Virus record (IMG/VR): IMGVR_UViG_3300045256_000094
Length of the DNA stretch: 64,000 bases
Source: a virus
Strand: one strand, 5' to 3'
A program made the position numbers and the translations under genes. Shown piece after piece: positions 33,740 to 54,155 of this stretch. The notes under the pieces are model-generated. The model was not told the DNA's origin. It worked only from the letters and a program-made list of their open reading frames with translations, and searched no databases. Numbering within the stretch: the stretch's first letter is position 1; each line of letters opens with the position of its first letter.

Positions 33740-34240
33740 TTACTTCTTTTTCTTCAGGTAGAAGCACTCCCCTGCGTAAACCCGCATGAAGTCGTCTATC
33801 TTCCAGGTCTGATCTTCGAGGGCTTTCGGCCCGCCGTTGTCGATCACCGTCATCGTCCCGGCCTTCCGGTCAACGCCGCTGACGACGAGGCAGTGGCGAG
33901 AACGTGGCCCGGTGATGATGCAGACAGCGACCGGCGAGCCTTCCTTAACGGCCGACTCGATTGACTCAAACACCGGCCCCTGTACAGCAACAAAGTCCAC
34001 CCCTCCCACACGGCACATCTCGTTGAGTGCGTCGTGGAGGAAGGCTGGACCCTTCTTCGTTTCAGTGACCTTGTAGAGTTGCGTGTAGCCGTGGTGGCGA
34101 GCAAGGGTTTCCATGCTCGACCACATGCACTGAACGCCGGTCTGGTTCTTGACCCTGTTCTCAGTTTTTACTTCAATGTTCTGCCCAAATGCCCAAACCG
34201 GAGCAACGGCCAGAAATAATACAGCGAGTAACTTACGCAT
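33740..34240 (-). CDS. secreted papain-like cysteine peptidase (C39-like) with signal peptide
   Basis: Signal peptide MRKLLAVLFLAVAPVWAFG, Cys block GVQCMWSSMETLARHHG and His block SRHCLVVSG. Confidence 0.5.
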   Translation of the reverse strand: MRKLLAVLFLAVAPVWAFGQNIEVKTENRVKNQTGVQCMWSSMETLARHHGYTQLYKVTETKKGPAFLHDALNEMCRVGGVDFVAVQGPVFESIESAVKEGSPVAVCIITGPRSRHCLVVSGVDRKAGTMTVIDNGGPKALEDQTWKIDDFMRVYAGECFYLKKKK

Positions 34241-34272
34241 AGGTTAATACCCTCCGCAGGGTATATTAACCT

Positions 34273-35151
34273 CTACATCAATTTCTCGCCAGTCCTCCAC
34301 ACACCCTTCGCCGCTTTGTACTTCCTGTCCAAAGACTCCAACTTCGCCATATCCATGTTGGCCTGATTGCTCTTAAGCTTCCCGCCGTTGAAAAACAACT
34401 CGATCATCCGCTCACGGGGCAGGTGGTTGGCACTCTTGTCGTCCACTTTCGGTGCCCAACCGAGCCGGGCGAGGAACTGCAACATGGCGTCGGGATCGTA
34501 CCCGGCGTTCTTATAGTGAAGCATCGACGTGCTGCCCTCACTCTTGCTGAGCAGCTTGCCGCCCTGGGAGATCAATCCGACGTGGGCGAACTTCGGGATG
34601 GGTGCCCCGAGCAGGTGGAACAGCACGACCTGCTTGCTGGTGTTGGTGATGTGGTCGGTGCCCCGGAGGATGTAGTTGATCCCCATATCCATGTCGTCCA
34701 CCACGGACGACCAGTTGTAGGTCGGGGTGCCGTCGCTCTTAATCAACACCATCTCGTGCATGCGGTTGAGATCGTCGTCGGTGATCTTCACGTCACCCAC
34801 AACCTCGTCGTGCCATGTCCTCGGGACTTCCTTGAAGTCCAGGTGGCTGACGTAAAGGGTCAACGCACCGTCCCGGTCGGAAACGTTGGGCAGCAGGTCG
34901 ATGGCCTCCCGGTGACGCTTGAACCGCTCGCTCTGGCGGAACGTCCGGTCGTGGTTGAGGCCGAGCCAGTCCATGATGTCGTGGATGACCTTCACTGAGT
35001 CTTCGTTGTTACGCTTCTGGTCCGTGTCGTCAATGCGGAGGGTGAAGGTGCCGCCGCTCGCTTTAGCGGCGAGCCAGTTGAAGTACGCCGTCCGGGCCGT
35101 GCCGATGTGAAGATCGCCGGTCGGGGACGGGGCAATTCGGGTGTGAAACAT
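34273..35151 (-). CDS. glutamyl-Q tRNA(Asp) synthetase-like protein (GluRS catalytic domain without anticodon-binding domain)
   Basis: RIAPSPTGDLHIGTAR (HIGH), DGTPTYNWSSVVDDMDMGINYILRGTDHITNT and KLLSKSEG (KMSKS-like); 292 aa. Confidence 0.72.
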   Translation of the reverse strand: MFHTRIAPSPTGDLHIGTARTAYFNWLAAKASGGTFTLRIDDTDQKRNNEDSVKVIHDIMDWLGLNHDRTFRQSERFKRHREAIDLLPNVSDRDGALTLYVSHLDFKEVPRTWHDEVVGDVKITDDDLNRMHEMVLIKSDGTPTYNWSSVVDDMDMGINYILRGTDHITNTSKQVVLFHLLGAPIPKFAHVGLISQGGKLLSKSEGSTSMLHYKNAGYDPDAMLQFLARLGWAPKVDDKSANHLPRERMIELFFNGGKLKSNQANMDMAKLESLDRKYKAAKGVWRTGEKLM

Positions 35152-35227
35152 GGGTTCCTTTCATGAAAAAAGCCCGGCGTACTGAGTGTACGCCGGGCTA
35201 CAGGTAGGAGGGTTACTCTACCTTCGT

Positions 35228-35860
35228 CTACTCTTCGTCGCTCATGTCGTTCTCAAGCTCGACGTTCCAGTAGGCCGTGCCGAGGAATTGCTCCCACGAC
35301 TTGATCGGCTTTACCATGTCGGCCTTGAAGACGTTCATCTTCGGCTTCTGCGGCTTCGTCAGCAGCTTCATGCCTGCCTGCTTCGGGGTCCGGTTGGCCT
35401 TCTTGGCGTTGCAGCTTACGCACGCCAGGGCACAGTTCTCCCACGACGTTACCCCGCCCTGGGCACGAGGCAGAACGTGGTCGATGGTCAGTTCCTCACT
35501 GCCGAACCGCTTGTAGCAGTATTGGCAGGTGTAGTTGTCTCGCTTGTACAGCGTCCGACGGCTGAAGTGAATCTTCGGCCGGGGCAGCTTCTCGTACTTC
35601 GAGAGCAGGATTACTTCGGGAATCCGAACCTCAAGGTTCGCCGTGCGGATGACTTCATCGTCGGCGGACGCCTTCAGCTTCGACCAGTCGGCCCAGGTCA
35701 TCTGCTGATAGCTCTCCGGCTCGATGATCTTTGCCTTCGGCGTGCCGTCAGCGTACTCGCTGAACAGCATGACGATGGCCCGCTGGAGACTGACCGTCCC
35801 CACGGCTGTCCAGTTCTTGTTTAGAACTAGAACTCGGTTCTGTGTGAGTGTCGCACTCAT
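35228..35860 (-). CDS. HNH endonuclease
   Basis: CQYCYKRFGSEELTIDHVLPRAQGGVTSWENCALACVSCNAKK. Confidence 0.8.
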   Translation of the reverse strand: MSATLTQNRVLVLNKNWTAVGTVSLQRAIVMLFSEYADGTPKAKIIEPESYQQMTWADWSKLKASADDEVIRTANLEVRIPEVILLSKYEKLPRPKIHFSRRTLYKRDNYTCQYCYKRFGSEELTIDHVLPRAQGGVTSWENCALACVSCNAKKANRTPKQAGMKLLTKPQKPKMNVFKADMVKPIKSWEQFLGTAYWNVELENDMSDEE

Positions 35861-35948
35861 GGATTCCCTCCTGTAATCTAAAGCATGTTTAACCCTCCGG
35901 CTGGCATTGCTGGGGGCGTTGTGGCCCTATCCATATCTATTATTCTAC

Positions 35949-36149
35949 TCAAAATCCCTCATTCTGCCAATCCACCTTTTCTCGTTTGGCCGGTTTCACC
36001 GGGGTGTACCAGCCGCCGATCAGGTAGATGTCCGGGAAGTAGGGCCGGGGCCGGACCGTCGCCTTCATCCGCTCCCGGTACACTGAGTCAAGGTACGTTG
36101 CGGCGACGAAGTAGAACGCCATGCTGCCGAGGATAGCCATTTCCAGCAT
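35949..36149 (-). CDS. small hydrophobic protein ending ...REKVDWQNEGF
   Basis: 66 aa; member of the C-terminal WxxEGF group. Confidence 0.5.
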   Translation of the reverse strand: MLEMAILGSMAFYFVAATYLDSVYRERMKATVRPRPYFPDIYLIGGWYTPVKPAKREKVDWQNEGF

Positions 36150-36196
36150 CTCTTCCCCTCATAGACCACCCACGGCAGCAGGTGGTTCACGCTTTT

Positions 36197-37000
36197 TTAC
36201 TCTTTCGTCTTGGCGTACAACCGGAGGATTTCCAGGTACAGCCACACCAGTCCGAGCATCAGACCGAACCCGGCGTACCATTCGTACCACTTCGGTGCCT
36301 TGTCCTCAGCCGCCAACCGGATGTCCTCGAAGTCCACGATCAGTGAGAGTGCTGCCACACCCACCACGAAGATCGAGAACACGACGCCCCAGGTGCCGCC
36401 CTCGTGAACCACCGGGACGTAGCTGCCGAAGCTGAGCATCACCAAGTCCACGGTATACAACACGATGATCCCGAGCATCGCCGCCAGCAGCCCGATCAGG
36501 AACTTCTGGGTCGGCCGCAGGATGCCCGTCCCGTACAGGAACAACATACCCGCCGCCACTCCGAAGGTTGAGGCCAACGCCTCCAACACGATCCCAGGGT
36601 ACTTCGCCTCGAACCCCGCCGAGATCGCACCCAGGGCTAACCCCTCCAGGGCGGCGTAGACCGGGCCGGTGAACGGTGCGGCTCGCTGCACGAAGATCGT
36701 GAACATTGCCACAGCGAAGGCACCGAGGCACCCCCAAATGGCGAGGCTGTAGACGTTGCCGGGAATGTCGATCTGGGTCTTCGCCGCCCCGTCCGTCACC
36801 GCCGAGAACGCATCCTTGTACCCGACCGTGGTGAGGTTCCAGGTGTAGAAGAACGTCGCCGCCATGATCGCCAGCATGATCCCCGTCTTGAGGGCCACGC
36901 CAGCCACACTGAACTTCGCTTCTTGGGGGCCGACTTCTGACTCGTCGAAGCTGCCCTGACGTACCGCCGGATTCTTTAACCAGTCCGCCATCTTACACAC
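36197..37000 (-). CDS. multi-pass membrane protein, BAX-inhibitor-1/YccA-like
   Basis: About 7 predicted TM segments. The C-terminus GLMLGLVWLYLEILRLY resembles the BI-1 family tail. Confidence 0.45.
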   Translation of the reverse strand: MCKMADWLKNPAVRQGSFDESEVGPQEAKFSVAGVALKTGIMLAIMAATFFYTWNLTTVGYKDAFSAVTDGAAKTQIDIPGNVYSLAIWGCLGAFAVAMFTIFVQRAAPFTGPVYAALEGLALGAISAGFEAKYPGIVLEALASTFGVAAGMLFLYGTGILRPTQKFLIGLLAAMLGIIVLYTVDLVMLSFGSYVPVVHEGGTWGVVFSIFVVGVAALSLIVDFEDIRLAAEDKAPKWYEWYAGFGLMLGLVWLYLEILRLYAKTKE

Positions 37001-37049
37001 TCCTTGTGTTAGAAACTGGTGTTAAGCTATCACATCGGCGAACCCGAGT

Positions 37050-37292
37050 CTAGTGCGTTAGCAAATTTCGGAGCAGGGTGTTTTCGGCGTCGATTCGCTC
37101 CAACTCTTTGCGATGGCGGGTTCGCCGCTTAGCCTTCTCGTTCTCTTCGAGAAGTTTCTTTAGAGTCGTCTCGCCGACTTGACCTTTGGGGGCGTTGGTG
37201 AGTTCGCCCAGAATGAACTGAAGTGACTGTCGTTTTTCAGAGCCGAATGGGGTAGCAGAGAGTTCCGACCTGACCTTCGCTAGAACGTCCAT
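37050..37292 (-). CDS. hypothetical protein
   Basis: 80-aa ORF starting 1 nt after the stop of the 37294 ORF. Confidence 0.4.
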   Translation of the reverse strand: MDVLAKVRSELSATPFGSEKRQSLQFILGELTNAPKGQVGETTLKKLLEENEKAKRRTRHRKELERIDAENTLLRNLLTH

Positions 37293-37293
37293 A

Positions 37294-37560
37294 TCAAAAT
37301 CCTTCCTGCGTCCATTCAGGATGTCCGCAGTCTAAACCATATTCCCATTCAAAATCAAGTGCAGCGTGCGCTCCGTCAAGCCACTTCGGACGGTCCGCTG
37401 GACTCGACGAACTGGAAGACGATGTTCTGGTCCGGGTTGAACTCGCCGCAGAGGATGTCTCTGCTTTGACCGCCGGTAAGGTCTTTCCGCAGAATGACCC
37501 GAAATACTTGTTCTGCATCGTCCACCGTAATCCCCTGATCCGAGAACAAATCCTTAACAT
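37294..37560 (-). CDS. questionable ORF ending ...PEWTQEGF (overlaps the 37376-37627 gene in another frame)
   Basis: The C-terminal 24 aa carry the WxxEGF motif. The N-terminal part is a low-complexity alternate frame. Confidence 0.3.
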   Translation of the reverse strand: MLRICSRIRGLRWTMQNKYFGSFCGKTLPAVKAETSSAASSTRTRTSSSSSSSPADRPKWLDGAHAALDFEWEYGLDCGHPEWTQEGF

Positions 37561-37627
37561 CCTGGTAGGTGAGGACGAGTTCTTTGGTCTGAAAGGTCAG
37601 TTGCGTCTCGCTGCCCGTGATAGTCAT
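37376..37627 (-). CDS. hypothetical protein
   Basis: MTITGSETQLTFQTKELVLTYQDVKDLF...; trimmed from the ORF-track extension. Confidence 0.4.
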   Translation of the reverse strand: MTITGSETQLTFQTKELVLTYQDVKDLFSDQGITVDDAEQVFRVILRKDLTGGQSRDILCGEFNPDQNIVFQFVESSGPSEVA

Positions 37628-37701
37628 ACCATATGTAAGTGTCAAAACAAAAAAATCCCCGGCCATCGGGCCGGGGACTTGGCGTTGAGCCTCTGGCGGT
37701 T

Positions 37702-38469
37702 CTAGCTGGACAGACGCTTGCGGACGAGGAACAGGCCGAACGCCGCCGGGATGCCCGAAGCCATCAGTGCGATGCTGCTCGGCTCGGGCGTGGTGATGGT
37801 CGGCGGGCCGTGCGGGTTCGGGTGATCGTTGCAATCCTTGTCATCATGACAGTGGCCCTTCGTGGGGCAGTGGATGGTGCAGATCGGCGGGCAAAAACGA
37901 TTGCACCAGTCGTGGTCTTCAGGGTAGGTGGTCGTCCAGTTGTTGATGATGGTCGGACCGTAGTTGATGAACGTGTCGCCGTTGATGATGGTCGGACCGT
38001 AGTTGATGATCGTCGAGGGCGGCGAGGCGAAGACGGTCGGCGGGCCGTACCGGAAGCCGCCCCCAAACCCCCAGCCTAAACCCCACCCGAGGCCACCGAA
38101 GAACGGGGACGGCGGCGTGTAGAAGAACCTGTTGATCGGCCCGCCCCCGGTCATCGGACCGAACCAGGAGTCGTGGCCGGTGGGCGGCAGACCCGAGTCG
38201 TAGTAGCCGTACAGCGGGACGCTGCCGCCGCTGTACTCTTCTTCACTAAGGACAACCTGCTTGTCGTCGGGGATGGGGATCGGACCGAGCGGGACGGTCG
38301 GGCAGAGGGGGATGGGCGGGCAGGGCAGGCACTCGAAGTAGAAGAACTGCGGCGGCGGGCAGTGGTAGAACCGGATGGGCGGCTCGCACCGGGGTCGGCC
38401 GAGCAGGAACCCGGCCTGGGTTTGGGCCACCATCAGCAGTGGCAGGACGGCGGACAGGAGCAGTCGCAT
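37702..38469 (-). CDS. secreted Cys/Pro/Gly-rich protein with PEP-CTERM sorting signal
   Basis: Signal peptide MRLLLSAVLPLLMVAQTQAG; internal repeats (I)INYGPTIIN; C-terminus TTPEPSSIALMASGIPAAFGLFLVRKRLSS. Confidence 0.62.
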   Translation of the reverse strand: MRLLLSAVLPLLMVAQTQAGFLLGRPRCEPPIRFYHCPPPQFFYFECLPCPPIPLCPTVPLGPIPIPDDKQVVLSEEEYSGGSVPLYGYYDSGLPPTGHDSWFGPMTGGGPINRFFYTPPSPFFGGLGWGLGWGFGGGFRYGPPTVFASPPSTIINYGPTIINGDTFINYGPTIINNWTTTYPEDHDWCNRFCPPICTIHCPTKGHCHDDKDCNDHPNPHGPPTITTPEPSSIALMASGIPAAFGLFLVRKRLSS

Positions 38470-38594
38470 GATGAACCTCCGACAACGAAGCGGGCGAAGA
38501 CCGAACCAGTATACCGTAAACTTTGGATGTGAAAAGGAGAGGGGCGGAATTTCTCCCGCCCCTCTCCCTGCTATAGCTCCCGTCGTTGGGAGTA

Positions 38595-39515
38595 TCACTT
38601 CAACCAGATGCCGTCGAAGTGTTTGTTGAGGAAATCCCTCATTTCTTTGGCGTCAGGTGAGTTCCTAAGTGCATCAAGATACTTCTCTTGCTTGTCATAC
38701 TTGAACTCCTTCAGGTCTTTGCCGGACATGAACACGTCGTAGCTCCGCTTCAGGTGCCAGTGAACAAATCTCTTGAACTGAACATTGGTCTTCCAGTATT
38801 CAGGGTCGTGCTTCTCGGCAGCCATCGCCACCGCAGTTCCGTAGACAGAGAACTCCAGCGGACCCGAAACAGCATCGGACCACTGCCCATTGTGTTTCCC
38901 GATCTTGGTGTCCTCGACGTTGACGCTGGCCCCGTTCACATAGGCAACCCACTCATCAAAGATGTACAGTGGGCGGTCGTCCCACGCCTGCTGTCCCGTG
39001 ACGTAGGTCGGATAGCGGAAGCCGTGGAGGGACTTCGGCACGAAGGGAATGATCGCACTCTTCTTAAACTTCGGCTCGTAGATCACGACGCCTTTGCCGT
39101 GCATGACGTAGAAGCCGTTGACCTTCGTGGAGTCCGGGTGGCCGTTGCGGATGTCGGCGTTGATGCCGTGGGTCGATTCGTGAGCGTTCGTGTCACGGTC
39201 GGCACGGGTGAACGGGCGGCGTGCCCGGTTCATGATGTCGGCGTACAGCGAATCTTCTCGATAGGCTTGCGTCACCGTCTTGACTTCAATGAACTCCGGC
39301 TCAGGAATCTTAGGGGCTGCCGGTGGCGTCCCCTCCTCTGGCCGGGCGTTGATCGGGCTGCTGAACTCTTCAAACGGCTCGACCGGCATTGTTGGCGGGG
39401 CGTTCTCCGTGAGCGACGGTGTACGACTCCCATACAGTTTGTAAATGGCGAGGTTGATGTTGACTGCAAAAGAGAGCAAGACAACCATCAACAGATTGCT
39501 CTTGATAGACATCAA
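38595..39515 (-). CDS. membrane-anchored/secreted hypothetical protein
   Basis: N-terminal hydrophobic segment MMSIKSNLLMVVLLSFAVNINLAIY; 306 aa. Confidence 0.5.
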   Translation of the reverse strand: MMSIKSNLLMVVLLSFAVNINLAIYKLYGSRTPSLTENAPPTMPVEPFEEFSSPINARPEEGTPPAAPKIPEPEFIEVKTVTQAYREDSLYADIMNRARRPFTRADRDTNAHESTHGINADIRNGHPDSTKVNGFYVMHGKGVVIYEPKFKKSAIIPFVPKSLHGFRYPTYVTGQQAWDDRPLYIFDEWVAYVNGASVNVEDTKIGKHNGQWSDAVSGPLEFSVYGTAVAMAAEKHDPEYWKTNVQFKRFVHWHLKRSYDVFMSGKDLKEFKYDKQEKYLDALRNSPDAKEMRDFLNKHFDGIWLK

Positions 39516-39701
39516 GAGTTATCTATAGTTTAACAACCACCATCTCGACCGAGTTCCAGGCAGTTTCTTCCAGGGTCACTCTGTAACCCATTTCGAGGAG
39601 CTTGGTGTGAAGTGCGCCGTCGTAAGGAATGCAGACCCGGATGTCCGGGCTAAGTCCTGCGTCCATAAGGGCTTTGATGAACAGGACAGTATCTTGAAAA
39701 G

Positions 39702-40295
39702 TCAAAATCCCTCTTCTTTCCAGTTCACCTTCTCTCTCGGCTCACTGACTTTCTTGAATGTGTTTACTTCGTCGTCCACGGCGATGCGGACGAATTGAGG
39801 CGGCATGACGACCGGGGCAGAGTTAACGAACCCGAACCGAGACAGGCGGCTGCGGCGGTTCTCGTACCGATCCATCTCCCGCTGGTACTCTCGCTCGTTA
39901 CTGGTGCGAACCGGCCTCTCGTTCATGACTTCCCGGAAGAAGGTATTAGAGTTATGCGCCCATTCGCCCATCATCTCTCGGCGGAACCGCTCGGACTGCT
40001 CCCGGAAATTCCGCTGGGATTCAGTCTCGTTGCTCCGAAGGTTCTGTAAGACGGCCTTGATCGAGGCCAACAGGCTCGCACCGCTTTCATCCTGCCGAGT
40101 CAGCGTGCGGTCCTGGTAGGCAACAATCCGGTCGGAGACGGCTTCCCTCAATCGGAAGTCCCGTCTCCCGCCGTACTCGTTAGATAGGATTGATAAGGCT
40201 TGGTTCTGGTCGCCGGACGTGCCGACTTCCCGCCACTCGCCGTTGAACATCACTTCCATGCGATACCTGTACCAAATGTCGTCGTTGTAGCTCAT
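39702..40295 (-). CDS. hypothetical protein (Arg/Glu-rich) ending ...REKVNWKEEGF
   Basis: 197 aa; member of the WxxEGF group. Confidence 0.5.
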   Translation of the reverse strand: MSYNDDIWYRYRMEVMFNGEWREVGTSGDQNQALSILSNEYGGRRDFRLREAVSDRIVAYQDRTLTRQDESGASLLASIKAVLQNLRSNETESQRNFREQSERFRREMMGEWAHNSNTFFREVMNERPVRTSNEREYQREMDRYENRRSRLSRFGFVNSAPVVMPPQFVRIAVDDEVNTFKKVSEPREKVNWKEEGF

Positions 40296-41086: not shown

Positions 41087-41113
41087 GTCGCATCCTCCAG
41101 ATGCCACAATCTA

Positions 41114-41997: not shown

Positions 41998-42005
41998 GCC
42001 AGTAT

Positions 42006-42452
42006 TTAGCTGGCACGGATTTGTTTCACGGCTGCCCCGACGGTATTTCCGTCAACGGCGAGGTTCTTCCCCTTCAGGAGCTTCATCGCCACGCCCGTCG
42101 CCTGCCCGTCGGACTTCGCCGCCTTGATGTCGCCCTGGACGGAAGCGAGTTCCGCCAGGACTTGATCGAGGGACAGCATCACCGGCAGGTAGCCCGTCAG
42201 GATCACGTTCTCCTGCGTCAGCTTGGCGTGCCGGGGGTCGGTCGTCGGCAGGTGCCCCAGCGACTCCGTGTTGCCCTCGATGGCCTTACGGATGACGCCG
42301 AACACCATCTCGTCGGTCGCCGTCTTGCTCTGGCGGATCGCCAGTGACTCGGTTTCGGCGACCACGACCTTCAGCGTGTCCCGGCGCACCGTGTCGCCGA
42401 ACTTCATTGCGGCCGTGATCTCAGCCCGCATCTGCTCGATCAACTTGCTCAT
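42006..42452 (-). CDS. GatB/YqeY-domain protein
   Basis: MSKLIEQMRAEITAAMKFGDTVRRDTLKVVVAE. Shares an ATGA overlap with the upstream CCA-enzyme stop. Confidence 0.62.
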   Translation of the reverse strand: MSKLIEQMRAEITAAMKFGDTVRRDTLKVVVAETESLAIRQSKTATDEMVFGVIRKAIEGNTESLGHLPTTDPRHAKLTQENVILTGYLPVMLSLDQVLAELASVQGDIKAAKSDGQATGVAMKLLKGKNLAVDGNTVGAAVKQIRAS

Positions 42453-43696
42453 GTCATCAGCCTCCGATCTTCGAGGTAGTGGTTCACCTGGAGTTCCCTG
42501 ATCTTCTTCCCCATCTCCGGCCCAGGGGCAATCCCGTACTTCTCCTGCACTTCCGCCCCGGTGATCTCCGGGAGTTCGTACACGCACAGGTGTTCGAGCC
42601 GTTCCGGGCAGAACGGGACGATCTTCGAGAACTCCGTCAAGCTCTCCCGGAACCCCGGCCTGTTACGCAAGGCCAGGGACGCCTTCACCATGTCGTCCAT
42701 CTTCGGCTCGGACGCACGGCAGGCGTTGTTCGTTTCCACCAAGAAGGCCACCAGATCGAACACATCGGCGGGCCACTTGGCTTCGAGGAGCTTGGCCTTC
42801 ACCAAATTCCCCTTCGGCACGTCGCTCAGAATCACCCCTAACACGACGCTCGGGTTCTTACAGTTCCCGACCTGTGCAGCGTGTGCCCGGCTGTGGTTCA
42901 GTTCGGGCAGCACTTCGTCCATCAGGCCCAGCCCGTACAGGTTGAGCAAGTACGAACGAGTCCTGACCGACTGCTTCAGCCCGGCAAGGAACTCCTGCTG
43001 GATACGCTCCTTGCTGATCGGCTGGAGGGTGCGCTGCCCCAGGTGGTGCGGGCAGGGCTGGTTCAGACGCCGGTAGTAGTCCAGAGCCGAGTAGGTCTGG
43101 TCAGTCAACTGGCCGTCGCCCTCTTGCAGCACCGTGTCGTTGAACCGGGAGAAGAACCGAACCAACCGCAAGATGCGGAGCCGGTCTTCACCGAGTCGCC
43201 TCCACGGATCGCCGATGGTGCGGACGTGCTTGAACATCACGTCGTTGATCCCGCACGAGTAGTCGAGGACTTCCCCGCTCCCGATGTCGTAGAACAACCC
43301 GTTGATGGTCAGGTCACGCCGGTAGTGATCGGCCTCTAGGTCACGGGTGTAAGTCACCTTGTCCGGGTGACGCCCGTCCCCGTCGGCCCCGTCGCTCCGC
43401 ATGGTGGCGATCTCGAAGTCCTCGCCGTCCAGGTGCGCCACCATGACCCCGAACGCCTCGCCCTTCTCGAAGCAGCGGATGTTGGCTTTCTTCAGTACAT
43501 CCGCTACCTCGAACGGCACGGCGTCAGTCACCACGTCCACGTCCTTCGACTTGAAAGGAAGGCCGTGAAAGCGAGCCAGGAGGAAGTCCCGGACGTAGCC
43601 GCCGACAGCGTAGAACCCGAACCCGGCGTCCTTGAAGACCTTGTGGAGCTTCTGGACGGGCTTGGGGACCGGGATGTCGAACTTGTGTCGTTGCAT
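42449..43696 (-). CDS. tRNA nucleotidyltransferase (CCA-adding enzyme)/poly(A) polymerase family with HD domain
   Basis: FYAVGGYVRDFLL...DVDVVT...GRHPD...RRDLTINGLFYD. Confidence 0.85.
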   Translation of the reverse strand: MQRHKFDIPVPKPVQKLHKVFKDAGFGFYAVGGYVRDFLLARFHGLPFKSKDVDVVTDAVPFEVADVLKKANIRCFEKGEAFGVMVAHLDGEDFEIATMRSDGADGDGRHPDKVTYTRDLEADHYRRDLTINGLFYDIGSGEVLDYSCGINDVMFKHVRTIGDPWRRLGEDRLRILRLVRFFSRFNDTVLQEGDGQLTDQTYSALDYYRRLNQPCPHHLGQRTLQPISKERIQQEFLAGLKQSVRTRSYLLNLYGLGLMDEVLPELNHSRAHAAQVGNCKNPSVVLGVILSDVPKGNLVKAKLLEAKWPADVFDLVAFLVETNNACRASEPKMDDMVKASLALRNRPGFRESLTEFSKIVPFCPERLEHLCVYELPEITGAEVQEKYGIAPGPEMGKKIRELQVNHYLEDRRLMT

Positions 43697-45011: not shown

Positions 45012-45285
45012 CCCAGCCTACACGGCCTCCACCTTACGGCTTCAGCCTCGGCCAGATGTGAGTTCCACGGTACGGTCCCAGGTATTGCTACCTGGGGTGC
45101 CGTCGTTCGGCACGCTTGTCGCACACCCTTGCGGGGTACAGTACCCTAGCTATTACGCTTTGGGATCAAGCTCGCTATCACCCTTACGGTGTTCGCAACC
45201 TTAGACTCGTCAAGATGTAATCCCTCTACCTGTACCTGATTCATCACCAAGTACAAGCATCCTTGCGGACAGCATTCTTCCCGAG

Positions 45286-45356
45286 TAGCCCCTACAGGAG
45301 TCGAACCTGTTCGACCTCTTTAGGAAAGAGGCACGCTTCCGTCACATCCAGGGGCC
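45286..45356 (-). tRNA. tRNA-Arg (anticodon CCU)
   Basis: Hand-folded 71-nt cloverleaf: acceptor GGCCCCU/AGGGGCU, anticodon arm CCUCU-UUCCUAA-AGAGG, T-arm ACAGG-UUCGACU-CCUGU. The D-stem has two G·U pairs. Confidence 0.55.
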
Positions 45357-45792: not shown

Positions 45793-45814
45793 ACTACATC
45801 CTTGTAGCTCGTTT

Positions 45815-47402: not shown

Positions 47403-47456
47403 GTAACATCCCCACACTAATGCAGAAGACCCAGGCAAACGCCTGGGTCTTTCTTT

Positions 47457-47984
47457 TTACGGCTCGTCGATACACTCGCAGTGAAGATGGGCGTTCGGGT
47501 CCGGCTCGTCCTGCCCCGTCTCGAAAAGTTCCCGTGCTGCCGTCAGCACTTGACCGAGCCAGTTCTTCCCTCGCCACGTCGCCCGGTCCTGGGCCTTCGG
47601 GTCGTCTTCCTTCAACCCGATCCCCCAAATCTTATCGTAGGGGCTGGCCTCCACCAGCGTAGTGCCCTTCGTCGCCAGCAGTTTTTCCAACAAGTCCGGG
47701 TTCTGTTTGAACTTGGCGAGGTTGCCCCGCAGCACCACGTCACGGGCCACGCCCTCCCACTTGCCCTGGTCGAACGGCGTGACCTGACGACCGAGTGCCT
47801 TCTGGGCCTTCGGGCTGGTCGTTTCCAGAATCTTCTTGGCGGTTTCCTTGTCACCGAAGAAGAGAGCCTTCTGGTGCATCATGTATTGCTCGGCGCAGTT
47901 GTACTCCACGCCATCGACCGTGAACTTGCAACGGTGCCACTGCGAAAACGGCCCGCTCCAAAAGAACGTGAACTTCTCAGACAT
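47457..47984 (-). CDS. NADAR-family protein (YbiA-like N-glycosidase / ADP-ribose processing)
   Basis: FFWSGPFSQWHRCKFTVDGVEYNCAEQYMMHQKALFFGD. Confidence 0.78.
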   Translation of the reverse strand: MSEKFTFFWSGPFSQWHRCKFTVDGVEYNCAEQYMMHQKALFFGDKETAKKILETTSPKAQKALGRQVTPFDQGKWEGVARDVVLRGNLAKFKQNPDLLEKLLATKGTTLVEASPYDKIWGIGLKEDDPKAQDRATWRGKNWLGQVLTAARELFETGQDEPDPNAHLHCECIDEP

Positions 47985-48840
47985 CGAGTCTCCCTCCTAT
48001 CATGTGTTTATCCATCTGCCGTGTGAACACGGCCCGGAACTCCGGCGTCTGACACTGTGCATACGAGAACGCTATCTGCGGCTCGAAGCCAGGGAACACG
48101 TCTCGCACGACGCCGTGGTTAATCTCTTCCATCATCAGAGCATACAGCACCCGATTCGCCCGAATGGGCTGGGGCATACACCCTTGCAGCAAGTGAAGGT
48201 TCGTCTGACCCCTTACATCCGAGTGAATCATACCGTTGTGAGAAAATGGTTCTAACGGAATGCCCAGGTCGCCCATGTGCAACAGGTAGCAGATCATCGA
48301 CTCGTCGTTGTAGTAGTCGAGAGTCGTCACCCGCTTGACCGTCTCTTCCATCCCAGGGCGGTCGGCCATGAGACAGGCGGCTGCAACCTGCGACAACATA
48401 CTGAACGAGCGGTAGCCGCCGTCGAAGGTGAAGCACCCGTTGTTCACGAAGCAGCCCGTTCGGGCCATCCGCAACACAGAGAAGTCCCAATCCTCGGGCA
48501 CGCAACCCATCCAGAACAAGTCCGTGTCCATGTGGACGTACTTGCCCGGATGCAAGGCGGCGGACCGGAACAGGGTGATGATCCGAGAGAACACCAGTCG
48601 AGTGAGAGGCGGCAGGCTGTGATGGAAGTTGTACATCACAGCCGGGACAACCTGGAAGTCCAGCATCTTCGGATAGGACTTCCAATCACACCCGTTGAAG
48701 TCGTACACCACTACCGGAGCGTCGGTGTAGTTCCTCAGTGAAGCGATGGTCAGGATCGGGTTGCAATACGGATCGCTGACCGGGCAGGAACCCGGCACCG
48801 GCGAATAGTAGCTCGTCAGGTAGGTTATTGTTGACGGCAT
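47977..48840 (-). CDS. hypothetical protein
   Basis: 287-aa ORF. Confidence 0.5.
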   Translation of the reverse strand: MPSTITYLTSYYSPVPGSCPVSDPYCNPILTIASLRNYTDAPVVVYDFNGCDWKSYPKMLDFQVVPAVMYNFHHSLPPLTRLVFSRIITLFRSAALHPGKYVHMDTDLFWMGCVPEDWDFSVLRMARTGCFVNNGCFTFDGGYRSFSMLSQVAAACLMADRPGMEETVKRVTTLDYYNDESMICYLLHMGDLGIPLEPFSHNGMIHSDVRGQTNLHLLQGCMPQPIRANRVLYALMMEEINHGVVRDVFPGFEPQIAFSYAQCQTPEFRAVFTRQMDKHMIGGRLDV

Positions 48841-49058
48841 GCTTCTTCGTACTGCGGGTCAAGCTCTGCGTGCAGGGCGGCGATCTCTTCCTTCGTGAAC
48901 GGCGGCTTCCCGGCCTTCACACGGAAGTGGTTCATCCACTGAATCTGAACCCACGGGACGACCGGCATTGGTTTGGTCATACCGAGTTCGCCGCAGGGGT
49001 TGAGGGTTTGTTGTTCCATAATTCGCCGGGGCAGGATTCGAACCTGCATTTGCTCCAT
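48825..49058 (-). CDS. hypothetical protein
   Basis: 77-aa ORF. Confidence 0.35.
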   Translation of the reverse strand: MEQMQVRILPRRIMEQQTLNPCGELGMTKPMPVVPWVQIQWMNHFRVKAGKPPFTKEEIAALHAELDPQYEEACRQQ

Positions 49059-49100
49059 GTCTAAGAGCGTGCTGCACCTTTACACCATGACGCTCCACGA
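49024..49100 (-). ncRNA. tRNA-like element with canonical T-arm (GCAGG-UUCGAAU-CCUGC); the full cloverleaf could not be resolved by hand
   Basis: GGATTCGAACC signature on the plus strand. A second T-arm-like and D-arm-like motif lies at 49130-49200. Confidence 0.3.
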
Positions 49101-49207
49101 AACAACCGGGCTGCTATCCGGTTATCCCGCTTGCGTTGCCAGAATCGAACCAGCGTCTTCTCTCGGGAGCCTAGTGCTACCGTTGCACAACCCGGCTCTT
49201 GGAGTAT

Positions 49208-49248
49208 AACAAAAAAGACAGGGGAGGCAATCGCCTCCCCTGTCTTTT
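49208..49248. terminator. strong rho-independent terminator (12-bp GC-rich stem, T-runs on both strands)
   Basis: gacaggggaggc-aatc-gcctcccctgtc flanked by a6 and t4. Confidence 0.6.
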
Positions 49249-49262
49249 CAGCCCTTTGGGGT

Positions 49263-50105
49263 TTAGTCCAAAAAGGCGACGTGTCGCATTGCTGCGGCTT
49301 GGTTCTCGGTGTTCATCAGCACCCGGCACCACGTCGGCAGGACGATGGTGGCGTGGTCGGCGTGGCTGATCCGGCCCTTAGCGTAGACGTTGGCGTCACG
49401 GACCATGACCCGCCAGCCCGGAGCCTTCCGCTCCTTCTCGGACAACTTGTGGTAAGCCTTCGCCGAGATGCCAGTGGGGTGCTGGCCGTTGACGTAGACC
49501 GTCTCGCCGCCCGCCCGGTAGCAGAACTCCATCGTGTGCGGCTTGCTGCCACGGCCACGGGTCAGGGGTTCGTTCTTGAGGATCAGGGCTTCGTCCGGCT
49601 TCAGGTCCGGGGCGGGGACGAAGAACCACTCGCCCTGGCGTTGGTAGACTTCGTTCTTCCGCTTCAGAGCCTTCTCGGGCTTGAGGCCGCTCTTGGCGAG
49701 GAGTTCCTGAACAGCCTTCGGCTGGAGGGCTTCCTTCGCCCGGCGAACGTCGCCGACGCCGGTAGCCTTCTCCGGGATGGCTGCGACGAACCAGTGGCGT
49801 TCGTCGTGCCCGCACAGGAACTTGCTCTTGTTGACCTGCCCCCGCTCGTCCTCGGTCTTCACCAAGAGAAGCAGGTGACGGTCGTCAGGCTTGATGTCTA
49901 CGACATCGACCTGAGCGGGTTCGGTGTTGGCTGGGAACTGGATGTCGAAGTATTCCCCGTTCTTGTCGCTGCGCACATCGAGGCGGGGGACGCCGAACTG
50001 CTGCGGTTGGGTCGTGGTGAAACGACGGAACCGTGGTGGCGGGGCGGTGGTGATCTTCACCCGTGCGCCCATTTCCTCGAAGCGCTTGATGAGTACGTTA
50101 CTCAT
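49263..50105 (-). CDS. hypothetical protein
   Basis: 280-aa ORF. Confidence 0.5.
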   Translation of the reverse strand: MSNVLIKRFEEMGARVKITTAPPPRFRRFTTTQPQQFGVPRLDVRSDKNGEYFDIQFPANTEPAQVDVVDIKPDDRHLLLLVKTEDERGQVNKSKFLCGHDERHWFVAAIPEKATGVGDVRRAKEALQPKAVQELLAKSGLKPEKALKRKNEVYQRQGEWFFVPAPDLKPDEALILKNEPLTRGRGSKPHTMEFCYRAGGETVYVNGQHPTGISAKAYHKLSEKERKAPGWRVMVRDANVYAKGRISHADHATIVLPTWCRVLMNTENQAAAMRHVAFLD

Positions 50106-50279
50106 GTGGCACTTCCTTAACTTTTGTTAGACACTCTCTTCCACGCTGGGGTCGCTACTCCCGTTGTGGATTATTATCTATACACCACTCCCCGAAGTTT
50201 ATCAAGAGGGAAAATAGAAAAGCCCGCCGATTTCTCGGCGGGCTTCCTCCGTTAGTGAATGTGGGGTTGGCCGATCAGG

Positions 50280-50801
50280 TTACTTGTAGATCGGCACCAG
50301 TTGCCCGTTGATGAGGGCGTACCCCTGGAAGGTGAGGGTCTGGCCCTGCTGTTGCTGTTGCGGCATCGGCTGGCCCTGCTGGATCGCCGGTGCCGCCCCG
50401 GTCGCCGGGATCGCCGACGACTGGCCGGGCGTCGTGCTGGACGACGGCGGCAGGGTGATGGTGGGCTGAGCGGCCGGGAACTGGATCGGCTGCTGCCAGT
50501 TCGGCTGCCAGCCAGCGATGGCGGGCTGCTGGAAGGACTGCGGGAACTGCTGGAAGGCGAACCCCGCCTGCTGGCACTCGGCACAGTTGCTCGCCGGGCT
50601 GGTGCTGATGAACCCGGTGGAGGCGTAGCCGCCACTGCACCCGCTGTTACACCCGGCGGAAGCGTAGCTCCCGCTGCACCCGGAGGAGGCGACGGCGTGC
50701 CCGCCACCGCACCCGCCCTTGCGACGACCCCCGAAGGCCGAAGCGTCCGCCGCCAGAACACCCGCCAGCCCCAGGGCCAGCATCAGTCGGAACTGCATCA
50801 C
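50280..50801 (-). CDS. secreted Gly/Cys/Ser- and Gln/Pro-rich protein
   Basis: Signal peptide MMQFRLMLALGLAGVLAADASA followed by low-complexity repeats. Confidence 0.5.
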   Translation of the reverse strand: MMQFRLMLALGLAGVLAADASAFGGRRKGGCGGGHAVASSGCSGSYASAGCNSGCSGGYASTGFISTSPASNCAECQQAGFAFQQFPQSFQQPAIAGWQPNWQQPIQFPAAQPTITLPPSSSTTPGQSSAIPATGAAPAIQQGQPMPQQQQQGQTLTFQGYALINGQLVPIYK

Positions 50802-50907
50802 GAACCCTCCTGAGATTCACGGCCAGCCGCCTGCTTGACGACCGGGACCACACTGAAGTGGACAGGGAGAGTAATACCGACGCCCTGGCGGGGTGTCAAC
50901 CTTTTTT

Positions 50908-51114
50908 TCAGATTGCGGGTGAATCGGGGATTAGCTCGGCGTACAGCGTCTCGAAGAACTCAGCGTCCATCGCCTTCGGCAGCGGAGGTTGGCTTTGTAG
51001 CTCCTGGGACATCTCCCGAAAACAATTGTCGCACATCCCGTGCGTCACCGCCGTGTTCTCAAGCGGTTCCTTCTGTCCCTGGTGGCTGTTGCACCACGCA
51101 CACATCACGATCAT
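50908..51114 (-). CDS. small zinc-ribbon protein
   Basis: MIVMCAWCNSH...THGMCDNCF; the ORF-track upstream part is a low-complexity alternate frame. Confidence 0.35.
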   Translation of the reverse strand: MIVMCAWCNSHQGQKEPLENTAVTHGMCDNCFREMSQELQSQPPLPKAMDAEFFETLYAELIPDSPAI

Positions 51115-51424
51115 TGGGCGTACCCTCCTGCCGATGCACCCAATAGTGGGCGCACCGTGCTGCGAATGCCTCGAAGTAAGCTTGGGGATCAGTCCCGAAC
51201 TCGGGGAAGCGGCCTGCCTCCAAACAACTTCTAGCATACAATCCGCAGTTGTGGAAAAATTCCACGGAATTCGGGAGGGCTTTCTTCGACTGGTCGCCTT
51301 CCGGCAGCGTCGAGTACAACTCGTGGTCATCGACCCAGCAGCGGCCGTGGCCCTCTTCGAGCATGTGTAAACGAATCCGACCCCGGAGGCGTCTGGCCTC
51401 ATCAGCCAGTTGCTCCGGGGTCAT
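51059..51424 (-). CDS. hypothetical protein
   Basis: MTPEQLADEARRLRGRIRLHMLEEGHGRCW... Confidence 0.4.
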   Translation of the reverse strand: MTPEQLADEARRLRGRIRLHMLEEGHGRCWVDDHELYSTLPEGDQSKKALPNSVEFFHNCGLYARSCLEAGRFPEFGTDPQAYFEAFAARCAHYWVHRQEGTPNDRDVCVVQQPPGTEGTA

Positions 51425-51447
51425 CGTGTCCAGATCGGTGTCCTGGT

Positions 51448-51957
51448 TCACTTTTTGTCCTTCTCTTCTTCGGATGTGAACGAGCGTTTGAGGCCACGCC
51501 ACAAGCCCTGGCCGAGATCGCCCCCGGCCTCGCCGATGCCTTCACCCGCCTTCTTCCAGTCGAGCTTGACGTGGCGGGTTGCGGTGATGTCGTCCTTCGT
51601 GTTGGGCTTGCCGTCCGGCCCACACGAGATGATGGTCATCGACTTCATGAAGCCGTCGTTGTACTTGACCATCAGGTCGTTGCCCCACGGGTCGGCCCGG
51701 TGGAGGGCTTCCGCCAGCCCCTCCTCGGGACAACTCCTGCACTCCTCGACCATCTCCTTCGCCTGCTTGACCTTCTCCTTCTCCAGCCTGATCTGTTCCT
51801 GCCGCTCGTTGTACTCCCGGTTCAGGGCACAGCCACCGTAACCGATCAGACCGGCGACAACCAACATGATGACGAAGATCACAAAAGGCCCGGCGGGGTC
51901 GTTACGTCGCATGTCATCCTCCTTATCGGTCACGGTCGTCGTAGTCGTATCGCTCAT
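51448..51957 (-). CDS. membrane-anchored hypothetical protein
   Basis: TM segment PFVIFVIMLVVAGLIGYGG. Confidence 0.45.
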   Translation of the reverse strand: MSDTTTTTVTDKEDDMRRNDPAGPFVIFVIMLVVAGLIGYGGCALNREYNERQEQIRLEKEKVKQAKEMVEECRSCPEEGLAEALHRADPWGNDLMVKYNDGFMKSMTIISCGPDGKPNTKDDITATRHVKLDWKKAGEGIGEAGGDLGQGLWRGLKRSFTSEEEKDKK

Positions 51958-52123
51958 TGTACCCGTCGTCGTCGCCGGTGTAATGTCGGCTCGGGACGTA
52001 GTTGGGGCGGTAGGTCTGTAGGTCAGTTACCTGACGGCGAAGCGACGTGTTCTCGCTACGCAGCTTCGTGTTTTCGGCACGGAGTTCAGCGTTTTCCTTC
52101 TGCAATTGTTCCAGTTCGGTCAT
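51923..52123 (-). CDS. small coiled-coil protein
   Basis: MTELEQLQKENAELRAENTKLRSENTSLRRQVTDLQ. Confidence 0.4.
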   Translation of the reverse strand: MTELEQLQKENAELRAENTKLRSENTSLRRQVTDLQTYRPNYVPSRHYTGDDDGYNERYDYDDRDR

Positions 52124-52189
52124 GTTATCCCCTTAATGCGGATAGATAAGACATCTATGATCTAAATCAATACTCCCAGGAGGCCCGCT

Positions 52190-52612
52190 ATGGTGAAGAG
52201 ACTTCTCCGGTTCTGTGAATCGTTCGCCAAGAAAACAACTCATTGGGCCGGGAGTAGTCTAGCGTTCCTGCTGGCGATTCTGGTCATCTTACTCTGGATC
52301 GTCACTGGCCCACTCTTCGGATTCTCAGACACATGGCAACTGGTGATTAACACCGGCACCACCATCGTGACCTTCCTGATGGTATTCCTTATTCAACGCA
52401 CGCAGAACAAAGACTCCATCGCCCTCCAGCTAAAGCTTAACGAATTGCTGGCCGCTCATCAAGGGGCGAGCAACCGATTGCTGAACATCGAAGAGTTGTC
52501 GGAAGAGGAGATTATGGCGTTGCAGAAGAAGTATCACAAGCTGGCAGACAAGATCAAGGCCGATGACAATCCGCACCGGGCCTTCACTGTTGACGAAGTG
52601 GACGACGACTGA
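52190..52612 (+). CDS. low-affinity iron permease (Fet4-like) family membrane protein
   Basis: FSDTWQLVINTGTTIVTFLMVFLIQRTQNKDS. Confidence 0.58.
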   Translation: MVKRLLRFCESFAKKTTHWAGSSLAFLLAILVILLWIVTGPLFGFSDTWQLVINTGTTIVTFLMVFLIQRTQNKDSIALQLKLNELLAAHQGASNRLLNIEELSEEEIMALQKKYHKLADKIKADDNPHRAFTVDEVDDD

Positions 52613-52747
52613 ACCGCTTCTTCCACAACCGATCCAGTAGTTTGATCCAGAGGCGGGCACACCGCTGGCTACAGAGAGGTTTCAACGTCCCGTCTGTGTC
52701 GTAAAACCCCCAGACGGGACGGTTTCGTTTACACCAACTGCATCTCA

Positions 52748-53119
52748 TCATAGGAGCTTCAAGCTCCCCGTGATCTTGTCGATCTTCCCCGCCGGAGCCG
52801 GACCGATGGCGAGGCAGGTCTTGGTGGGCACTCCGTTGAACTCAGTACGCCCGCTGTCCGTAATCATGTGGACGGTGAGCATGGCGTCCTTCGCCTTCTG
52901 GAAGATGTCGAGCAGTTCTTCCTCGGAGTCGCAGCGGACGCAAATCTTGGCGTAGCCCGATTCGGTCCACTCGACTTCTTCCTTCGTGAGCTTCTGCCCG
53001 TTGAGGAGTTTCTGCATCAAAAACGCACCGGAGGCGTGCGAACCCTGGGCGACCATCTTGCCCTTGCGCATGTTCAGGTCGTTACGCATCACGATGACTT
53101 GCTTCACGTCGTCCATCAC
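52748..53119 (-). CDS. peptidyl-tRNA hydrolase, PTH2 family
   Basis: KMVAQGSHASGAF...KICVRCDSEEELL...DSGRTEF...TCLAIGPAPAGKIDKITGSLKLL. Confidence 0.8.
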   Translation of the reverse strand: MMDDVKQVIVMRNDLNMRKGKMVAQGSHASGAFLMQKLLNGQKLTKEEVEWTESGYAKICVRCDSEEELLDIFQKAKDAMLTVHMITDSGRTEFNGVPTKTCLAIGPAPAGKIDKITGSLKLL

Positions 53120-53412
53120 TTCTCCACTTTCGTGACTTTACCGAAGATAGTCTTCGTCCAGCCGTTGACGTGCCCCTTGTTGTTGCTGATCTGCCACCGC
53201 TGGCCGTCTTTGGCGGTAATCAGATGGAGGTAGTAGGTGCCGTGGACTTTGCACAGCACCACGTCGCCTACCTCTAGCGTCTCGGGAGCGACGGGCTGGA
53301 CAGTTACCAGATCACCGTCGTCCACTTTCCCTGTCATCGAGTTGCCTCTAGGCCGAAACTGGACGGTTTCGCCTTTCTGCAACTTCTCAACATGCGGCTT
53401 TGCCCAACTCAC
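53116..53412 (-). CDS. S24-like peptidase-domain protein (LexA/UmuD-type fold)
   Basis: FRPRGNSMTGKVDDGDLVTV. Confidence 0.45.
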   Translation of the reverse strand: MSWAKPHVEKLQKGETVQFRPRGNSMTGKVDDGDLVTVQPVAPETLEVGDVVLCKVHGTYYLHLITAKDGQRWQISNNKGHVNGWTKTIFGKVTKVEK

Positions 53413-53617
53413 ACTTCACCGCCATGAACGGGTTAACGATCTGCATGCCCTCGGCCTGCTTCTCTGCCTTCTCTTCGCCCGCCCGCTCGATCTCCCTCCG
53501 GGAGTGGAACGGACAGCAGTGCAACGACCAGTCGAGGCAGACGCCGTAGAACACGCCTTCCCCTGATACTACCTTGACGGCTTTGCAATTACAACCGGGA
53601 ATTTCGCAGCTTGGCAT
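53387..53617 (-). CDS. Cys-rich small protein
   Basis: 76-aa ORF. Confidence 0.4.
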   Translation of the reverse strand: MPSCEIPGCNCKAVKVVSGEGVFYGVCLDWSLHCCPFHSRREIERAGEEKAEKQAEGMQIVNPFMAVKCELGKAAC

Positions 53618-53985
53618 TAGAAACCCTCCTGTCTCCAGTTAACGCCCGTTTCCCCACGAATCAGGCGACAAGAGTATGTACGTTGATGCTGTGCGTCTTC
53701 GAGGAAAGGATAGAGCTTCCGGCAGTGAATCCACAACATGACGGGAGTGCCGAACAGGTAGAGGACAGGAATTGCAATACCGGCCAGGATCGTCTCGAAG
53801 ATATCCCCGGCGTCGGCCTTCCTCATGCAGAAATCAAAGGTGCGAACGAAGACGTGTTTCCTGATCGCCAGGACGCACTTGTCGATGAAGTTGGGTTTCA
53901 TGGTTGTCCCCCACGCCGGGCGGGTCGGGCAACCCCTGTCCGACCCCATAAGGACAATGCCTGCAACCATTGCGGCAGCAGGCAT
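53617..53985 (-). CDS. hypothetical protein ending ...ETGVNWRQEGF
   Basis: Member of the WxxEGF group; the likely start is the internal MKPNFIDK. Confidence 0.45.
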   Translation of the reverse strand: MPAAAMVAGIVLMGSDRGCPTRPAWGTTMKPNFIDKCVLAIRKHVFVRTFDFCMRKADAGDIFETILAGIAIPVLYLFGTPVMLWIHCRKLYPFLEDAQHQRTYSCRLIRGETGVNWRQEGF

Positions 53986-54064
53986 TGCGGTTTCTCAAGA
54001 ACAACGTGGTTAGGACGAACCGGCCGTTCTCTTGGTAATAATCTCGTCCCTCTTGTAACATGAG

Positions 54065-54155
54065 TCGGGGTGTCGGGATTCGAACCCGATCCGGTGGGTT
54101 AATCGGACCCTATACCGATTATAAGTCGGCCCGTTCTGCCAGTAACTCCACCCCG
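54065..54155 (-). tRNA. class II-like tRNA (91 nt, long variable region); anticodon loop CUUAUAA, so the anticodon is possibly UAU and the identity is uncertain
   Basis: Acceptor CGGGGUG/CACCCCG (7/7 pairs), 3-bp D-stem GUU/AAC, T-arm UCGGG-UUCGAAU-CCCGA. Confidence 0.5.

Follow-up and report, generated by a model that had tools for sequence, protein, structure and literature searches.

A truncated RF1-type release factor gene with two putative serial +1 frameshift sites, in a huge-phage segment carrying translation and candidate end-repair genes

In Escherichia coli the +1 frameshift site of prfB, the gene for RF2, reads AGGGGG UAU CUU UGA C, with a Shine-Dalgarno-like sequence 3 nucleotides ahead of the CUU, and programmed CUU-stop frameshifting has so far been treated as a hallmark of RF2 only. 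Of 8,164 prfB motifs in one survey, 98.6% had TGA as the stop and all the others TAA; TAG was never seen, and there was no evidence of prfA frameshifting (PMC12421855). In RECODE every CUU-stop +1 site belongs to prfB (PMC10885494). Phage-encoded RF1 and RF2 are already known, in reports where frameshifting goes unmentioned (PMC7162821; bioRxiv 10.1101/2021.08.26.457843), and recoding of the Mimivirus and Megavirus release factor gene has been interpreted as prfB-like autoregulation (PMC3521657). Separately, a set made of a Pnk-like kinase, a ligase, RlaP, PTH2, a CCA enzyme and tRNAs has been read as RNA repair and ribosome rescue in jumbo phages (Iyer et al. 2021, PMC7824862). The DNA considered here is a 64,000-nucleotide stretch of the IMG/VR virus record IMGVR_UViG_3300045256_000094, called the window throughout, and it carries a truncated RF1-type release factor gene alongside such a set. 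The overall explanation that seems best, at a probability of roughly 0.7, is that three loosely grouped huge-phage gene sets, not one operon, occur in it together with a doubly frameshifted RF1-type gene. What is new is the RF1-type gene with its putative double recoding and the phage-wide family to which it belongs, whereas the toolkit itself is one more example of a known pattern; no description of a recoding leader on a phage RF1 gene was found in the literature searched.

Likely genes were called from the length of the open reading frames (ORFs) and their third-position GC content, and 88 window ORFs were scanned against Pfam, the key proteins additionally against NCBIfam and PHROGs. In the release factor Pfam matches the C-terminal half of PCRF and the RF-1 domain, and the protein aligns to E. 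coli RF1 over residues 109-340 only, in agreement with the preliminary description of the window, which had it as a release factor lacking domain 1. The NCBIfam RF1 (prfA) models give 234-244 bits over profile positions 101-333 of 347; positions 1-100 are absent and the RF1 equivalog cut-off of 400 is not reached. Against the RF2 model the score is 154 bits. The RF body is intact and keeps both GPGGQ (the GGQ motif) and QRVPETE, the latter with the PxT stop-codon motif in the form PET, which is the most frequent tripeptide among the bacterial RF1 controls. Lack of domain 1 is a trait that the factor shares with PrfH, and PrfH/RtcB-like logic had been proposed for it. That identity was rejected: the PrfH model TIGR03072 yields 69.3 bits against a cut-off of 166.65, RF1 reaches 244 bits and PxT is kept. 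Neither is there an RtcB domain in the 88 ORFs by Pfam, and the genes adjoining the release factor gene are without any match. Because of the RF1, RF2 and PrfH scores, the alignment range and the retention of PxT and GGQ, the factor is, as far as its sequence goes, an RF1 without domain 1 and not a PrfH.

The gene is read in three frames. From 21710 on the minus strand the DNA runs AGGAGacgacg ATG AGT AAG CAC AAC AAT AGG GGG TCG CTT TGA C, so that a start codon with a good ribosome-binding site opens a leader that soon meets CTT-TGA. A +1 shift at this first site leads to GAC CCC ATG AAG AAG ATG GGG GAC AAG TGG AGG AGT CTT TGA G, and a second one leads to GAG CAG GCC AAA GAA ATC ATC CTC GAA CTA CGG TTC GGG GAG GGC GGT, which is the RF frame, entered from site 2 at 12 codons ahead of the GEGG motif. 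At both sites the features of a prfB-type signal are found, namely CUU directly ahead of an in-frame stop, the frame downstream of it being at +1, and the Shine-Dalgarno-like sequences (AGGGGG at site 1, GGAGG at site 2) each lie exactly 3 nucleotides ahead of CTT. The RF frame itself has no ATG, GTG or TTG before the PCRF domain. CTTTGA occurs 31 times in 128 kb (both strands), and a rough hand estimate puts the chance of two correctly framed copies in these short open stretches at ~1e-5. As read from the sequence, the leader joins the RF domains only via two successive +1 shifts at CUU-UGA, the frameshifting being putative at each.

Two simpler ways of reading the gene were tried and rejected. 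One prfB-like shift into the RF frame lands in a frame that stops again, and two successive +1 shifts are needed. TGA as a sense codon fails in that no RF sequence follows when the first TGA is read through, and in that 27 of the 71 window genes end with TGA; TAA ends 33 and TAG 11, and with all three stops in use the code is therefore the standard one. An exact search of viral contigs with the leader DNA returned no match.

IMG/VR was scanned first with the window protein and next with an alignment of four sequences, and 33 loci had full-length or nearly full-length matches, on contigs of 62-533 kb. Left out of the truncated set were three ordinary full-length RF1 genes (L037, L039, L041) and two fragmentary ones (L033, L040). 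Among the 29 truncated RF1-like genes (window included) 25 have a CTT-stop site leading +1 into the RF frame, one site in 17 genes and two in 8, and in most the site lies 11-12 codons ahead of GxGG. About 22 independent assemblies show the design, each time at the same distance from GxGG. As a control, bacterial genomes were scanned likewise; of the 72 full-length RF1 genes obtained, not one carries a CTT-stop site 30 codons or fewer from GxGG. L011 and L019 have a direct ATG start at the domain edge. Once three duplicate loci are removed, the stop at single sites is TGA in 11, TAG in 3 and TAA in 1, and the double sites combine TGA/TGA (window, L016, L031), TAG/TGA (L009), TAA/TAG (L012), TAA/TGA (L013) and TAG/TAG (L036). 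A leader ATG is present in all double-site genes, with AGGAG or GGAGG upstream of it in six of the seven non-redundant ones (the window included, L009 not), and in four of these seven the middle segment is without any possible start codon, so both shifts are needed there.

Gln stands in place of the conserved His of GRxHTS, in the decoding segment, in 21 of 28 phage-type factors versus 5 of 80 bacterial RF1 controls, and PxT is absent in two relatives, being PHL in L012 and PSN in L027. A by-eye comparison gave no obvious correlation of the frameshift stop with either the His/Gln residue or the PxT variant. The L002 gene (the same locus as L030, IMGVR_UViG_3300025131_011243) contains two in-frame TGA codons, and since their reading as sense restores the conserved C-terminus MKG-W-FDLIN, this phage probably recodes TGA and carries an RF1-type factor. 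In L003 (IMGVR_UViG_3300045256_000381) the release factor gene is interrupted by an insertion of at least 3 kb with an HNH ORF, and in L022/L042 (IMGVR_UViG_3300049617_000144) the halves of the gene are separated by ~2.5 kb; mobile elements seem to hit this gene often. Short RF1-like genes with a CTT-stop leader also occur on 26-51 kb contigs in bacterial bins, L087 and L090 in Pirellulaceae and L088 in Obscuribacterales. These may be mis-binned phage contigs or prophages, and hint weakly at hosts among the Planctomycetota. Of 723 matches in the protein database the best 120 are all of 172-295 residues and named "peptide chain release factor 1", with recoding unmentioned. The leader is missed by gene callers, and the true N-termini of the family and its regulation stand unannotated in databases.

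Translation would then start at the ten-codon leader and the ribosome would shift +1 at CUU-UGA twice to reach the RF domains. By analogy with prfB, each slip would compete with termination at its stop codon, and the factor would therefore be made mainly when release-factor activity is limiting in the infected cell. Two serial sites would multiply two efficiencies, and so a low basal level and a steeper response might be expected. With an RF1-type product and both window stops being UGA, which RF2 reads, the feedback loop would have to be an indirect one, possibly by way of the UAA load common to RF1 and RF2, or alternatively the factor could have an altered or wider codon range. The frequent change of His to Gln (GRxHTS to GRxQTS) may be a sign of an altered stop-codon range, which, if so, would explain how UGA, UAG and UAA can all serve as the sensing codon. 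L036, with UAG at both sites, would fit RF1 autoregulation.

A wider proposal is that RF1-type factors without domain 1 are widespread in huge phages, are turned on through one or two +1 frameshifts in the style of prfB, and both sense and effect termination capacity. This is put forward tentatively, its chances seeming a little short of even. If true, this would make the tandem sites the first serial +1 frameshift switch in nature and the UAG-containing ones the first autoregulatory frameshift of RF1 type. The phage RF1-like family would break both rules held for CUU-stop sites (RF2 only, and never UAG) and adds serial sites, and would make it possible to test directly how a virus gauges and tunes the termination of translation in the host.

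Table 1. Positions of the release factor gene and the other features discussed, numbered on the window
Feature	Position	Strand	Basis or remark
Truncated RF1-type release factor gene, without domain 1	20936-21693	-	read in three frames
Leader ORF MSKHNNRGSL, 10 codons	21693-21664	-	sequence reading
Middle segment DPMKKMGDKWRSL	21662-21624	-	sequence reading
RF body, 228 residues, PET and GGQ motifs	21622-20936	-	sequence reading
Putative +1 frameshift site 1, AGGGGG TCG CTT TGA C	21661-21675	-	direct reading; homologous sites in relatives
Putative +1 frameshift site 2, GGAGG AGT CTT TGA G	21621-21634	-	direct reading
P-loop kinase, polynucleotide-kinase type, AAA_33	1310-1846	-	Pfam
Zinc-ribbon protein (CxxC)	1918-2214	-	between kinase and ligase
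ParB_N-domain protein	2283-3593	-	between kinase and ligase
ATP-dependent ligase, 204 residues, nucleotidyltransferase domain only	3714-4328	-	motif I KFNGDR, motifs III, IIIa, IV, V
Small ORF upstream of ligase	4452-4709		Cys-rich, no family match
RlaP/PF10127 nucleotidyltransferase, whole split gene	15956-17680	+	Pfam, PHROGs
RlaP N part	15956-16681	+	PF10127 37.4 bits, cut-off 23; phrog_388 positions 33-222
Inserted low-GC ORF, NUMOD3 motif, HNH-like C-terminus	16626-17225	+	homing-endonuclease type
RlaP C part	17222-17680	+	phrog_388 positions 233-339
GluRS catalytic core, without anticodon-binding domain, 292 residues	34273-35151	-	PF00749 E 7e-61
YqeY (GatB/YqeY) domain protein	42006-42452	-	PF09424 E 2.5e-12
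Class II tRNA nucleotidyltransferase, CCA-adding type	42449-43696	-	PolyA_pol head E 2e-30
tRNA-Arg(CCU)	45285-45356	-	ARAGORN; Rfam 40.5 bits
Degenerate tRNA-like sequence, GCA anticodon loop	45821-45893	-	25.9 bits to tRNA-Sec model
NADAR-domain protein	47457-47984	-	E 5e-54
Degenerate tRNA-Val(GAC)-like sequence	49023-49092	-	only at relaxed ARAGORN threshold
PTH2 peptidyl-tRNA hydrolase	52748-53119	-	TIGR00283 109.4, cut-off 82; PF01981 119.5, cut-off 23
tRNA, anticodon UAU	54064-54155	-	ARAGORN; Rfam 36.6 bits

The window is a segment of a huge-phage genome with a GC content of ~58% and, by Pfam scans, a large cluster of sugar-nucleotide, glycosyltransferase and methyltransferase genes. 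Megablast against phage records matched it at one place only, over 373 nucleotides of the NADAR gene, to Xanthomonas phage Xoo-sp2; the NADAR-domain protein also matches, weakly, an NCBIfam model called "NADAR family anti-phage protein". The preliminary description had taken its translation and repair genes as one tRNA/ribosome repair kit lying between positions 33740 and 54155. All the genes it listed do exist in the window (Pfam, NCBIfam, PHROGs, ARAGORN) and the set is the one published for jumbo phages, but of these just the GluRS, CCA/YqeY, PTH2 and tRNA genes lie within that range, the others being at 1.3-21.7 kb. The genes are in fact dispersed over 54 kb among sugar-metabolism genes and form no operon, and key enzymes expected of a single kit were not found, as set out below.

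A first set of genes would serve the supply of tRNA: two tRNAs for rare codons, the CCA enzyme coupled to a YqeY protein of tRNA-binding type, and the GluRS core. The GluRS-like protein has the HIGH (as HIGT) and KMSKS-like (KLLSKS) motifs, and scores 259 bits with gltX_bact (profile up to position 315 of 470) versus 156 with the best GluQRS model, below all curated cut-offs including the 250 set for GluQRS. Its predicted architecture, without the anticodon-binding domain, is that of GluQRS, as had been claimed, but the GluQRS sequence test failed. For the CCA enzyme the best NCBIfam match is NF009814 (CCA nucleotidyltransferase) at 139 bits, below cut-off; the ATG of the YqeY gene overlaps its TGA as ATGA, with GGAGG upstream, and the proposed translational coupling of the two is upheld. 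Both tRNAs stand above the Rfam tRNA gathering score of 29, although a whole-window Rfam scan at gathering returned nothing and missed them, and it was a laxer 12-kb scan that recovered both. The additional tRNA-like elements claimed for the window are sub-threshold only (Table 1). The codons read by the two tRNAs are rare ones, AGG accounting for 10% of Arg codons and AUA for 4% of Ile codons. A CCA end is encoded in neither of them, which gives the CCA enzyme a plain maturation role, and supply and maturation of the phage's own tRNAs is the simpler explanation for these three components, tRNAs, CCA enzyme and GluRS core. In the tRNA with anticodon UAU the variable region has 21-23 nucleotides (class II-like) and there are a C1-G72 pair and A73, an unusual build for an isoleucine tRNA. 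A second set, PTH2 (above both its cut-offs, as had been described) and the RF1-derived factor without domain 1, would clear ribosomes and peptidyl-tRNA.

The third set would heal and seal polynucleotide ends, and comprises a Pnk-like 5'-kinase, a ligase reduced to its nucleotidyltransferase domain and a split RlaP; the kinase would phosphorylate 5'-OH ends, RlaP refill lost 3' nucleotides and the ligase seal. The kinase had been called polynucleotide-kinase-like, and its best matches are indeed Pnkp kinase domains, though weak ones (E 0.007 to the C. thermocellum Pnkp kinase domain 4gp7, the best in the PDB; E 5e-9 to positions 11-160 of TIGR04075 in NCBIfam); mammalian PNKP and phrog_505, "polynucleotide kinase", are further matches. 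The ligase is minimal, as described, and belongs to a family of ~200-residue proteins in which motifs I (KFNGxR), III, IIIa, IV and V are conserved and whose members lie on contigs of 177-668 kb. It is without an OB domain, its Pfam match is DNA_ligase_A_M, and its AlphaFold model has a predicted local distance difference test (pLDDT) value of 95; a few family members carry a precomputed PF09414 (RNA ligase) assignment. The small ORF upstream of it was considered as a separate OB domain and rejected. Three related huge-phage contigs keep the order ligase, ParB_N, zinc ribbon, kinase, FolD, and in ligase family members a ParB_N and then a CxxC zinc-ribbon protein always come before the kinase. 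Because related phages share general synteny, this order is weak as functional evidence. Adjoining the ligase in two relatives, in divergent orientation, is a 2H phosphoesterase that has two HxT motifs (L005 5405-5896, minus strand; L006 5460-5915, minus strand), and the L005 protein matches tRNA_lig_CPD at 28.9 bits, above the Pfam cut-off for this fungal tRNA-ligase phosphodiesterase domain. The 2H gene was not found in the window by Pfam scans or by tblastn with the L005 and L006 proteins, and is also absent from L007.

The PF10127 nucleotidyltransferase of the preliminary description is an RlaP gene in two parts, phrog_388 matching in two pieces around a low-GC NUMOD3 ORF, on which grounds a homing endonuclease has split it. 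The stop of the inserted ORF overlaps the ATG of the C part (ATGA), and Rfam gave no match to a group I intron around the insertion. RlaP adjoins no RNA ligase gene, its neighbours being sugar-modifying and methyltransferase genes. A recent paper showed that RlaP extends damaged 3' ends of RNA by 1-2 nucleotides (PMC12776372).

Several observations count against the explanation preferred here. An RF1-type product behind the RF2-specific UGA stops makes no simple autoregulatory loop, and the Shine-Dalgarno-like element upstream of CUU is missing in some relatives. The middle segment in the window holds two ATG codons with a Shine-Dalgarno-like sequence 13 nucleotides upstream, and initiation at these could bypass site 1. 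On the repair side, no 3'-phosphatase or 2',3'-cyclic phosphodiesterase for 3'-end healing was found in the window (Pfam scans; tblastn), and RlaP, split by a mobile element, may be inactive. Both profile search and Foldseek place the ligase with ATP-dependent DNA ligases (ASFV, that is African swine fever virus, Lig1 and archaeal ones) with no RNA ligase near the top of either list of matches, and by sequence and modelled fold it looks DNA-ligase-like.

It is possible, although on the whole rather doubtful, that the kinase-ParB-ligase module acts on DNA, in nick or end repair or in replication, and that the translation genes tune phage translation with no role in repair. The affinities of the ligase to archaeal, eukaryotic and ASFV DNA ligases fit such a role, as do the mammalian PNKP among the kinase matches and the ParB_N protein encoded between kinase and ligase, while tRNAs that suit rare codons and have no encoded CCA fit plain tuning. 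DNA ligases, however, need an OB domain for self-adenylylation, which the window ligase lacks, and the 2H phosphodiesterase next to the ligase in two relatives is of the tRNA-ligase type, its chemistry being RNA-specific; RlaP, too, acts on RNA (PMC12776372).

An outright defence against ribotoxins and anticodon nucleases, in which Pnkp/Rnl-like healing and sealing of tRNA and PrfH/RtcB-like ribosome rescue by the truncated factor form a single kit, is unlikely. The Pnk-like kinase, ligase, RlaP, PTH2 and CCA enzyme do occur together in the window, a cyclic phosphodiesterase does adjoin the ligase in L005 and L006, and the release factor, like PrfH, is without domain 1. The low PrfH score beside that for RF1, and the PxT motif, speak against such a kit, and Pfam finds no Rnl1/Rnl2-type ligase and no HD or metallophosphatase domain in the 88 ORFs, RtcB and any end-healing phosphoesterase being missing too; the DNA-ligase-type fold of the ligase and the scattering of the genes do not help either, and the reading as one kit with Pnkp/Rnl-like and PrfH/RtcB-like logic proposed earlier is supported only in part. 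That the in-frame stops are not recoding at all, the gene being a pseudogene, an assembly error or one with a non-canonical start just before the RF domains, is very improbable, for although the RF frame has no canonical start and L011 and L019 begin with ATG directly at that position, the RF body, GGQ and PxT included, is intact, two correctly framed sites would hardly arise by chance, and the CUU-stop design, complete with leader ATG and ribosome-binding site, recurs across the independent phage assemblies and in none of the bacterial RF1 controls.

Compared with described systems, the putatively doubly frameshifted gene and its surrounding sets resemble the complement of jumbo and huge phages above 200 kb (Iyer et al. 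2021; Al-Shayeb et al. 2020) in having tRNAs, a CCA enzyme, PTH2, RlaP, a polynucleotide kinase, a ligase, an aminoacyl-tRNA synthetase as well as a release factor. They differ in that the window ligase is a 204-residue DNA-ligase-type domain and not Rnl or RtcB, in being without an end-healing phosphoesterase, and in the recoding leader, which is in neither of those papers. With the T4 Pnkp-Rnl1 and fungal Trl1 pathways the window shares a 5'-kinase and a ligase, and the L005 and L006 relatives a 2H cyclic phosphodiesterase as well, but the window proteins are small and separate, the ligase is of another clade and the cyclic phosphodiesterase is absent. PrfH (RF-H), found with RtcB2 (PMC6514570), is likewise a release factor homologue without domain 1, whereas the window factor scores weakly on the PrfH model, retains PxT and has no RtcB neighbour. 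The Mimivirus and Megavirus gene (PMC3521657), the nearest parallel in the literature, is also a virus-encoded class I factor with two internal stops to pass, but is an eRF1 homologue of a eukaryotic virus and relies on a single frameshift plus a single readthrough instead of two CUU-stop +1 sites.

The layout of prfB itself is also seen here, with a Shine-Dalgarno-like element, a 3-nucleotide spacer, CUU and an in-frame stop placed close to the 5' end of a gene for a class I release factor, window site 1 being nearly identical to the E. coli site. In contrast to prfB, the window gene is on a phage, is of RF1 type without domain 1 and has two serial sites, and in its phage family the stop, never TAG in the prfB survey (PMC12421855), can be UAG.

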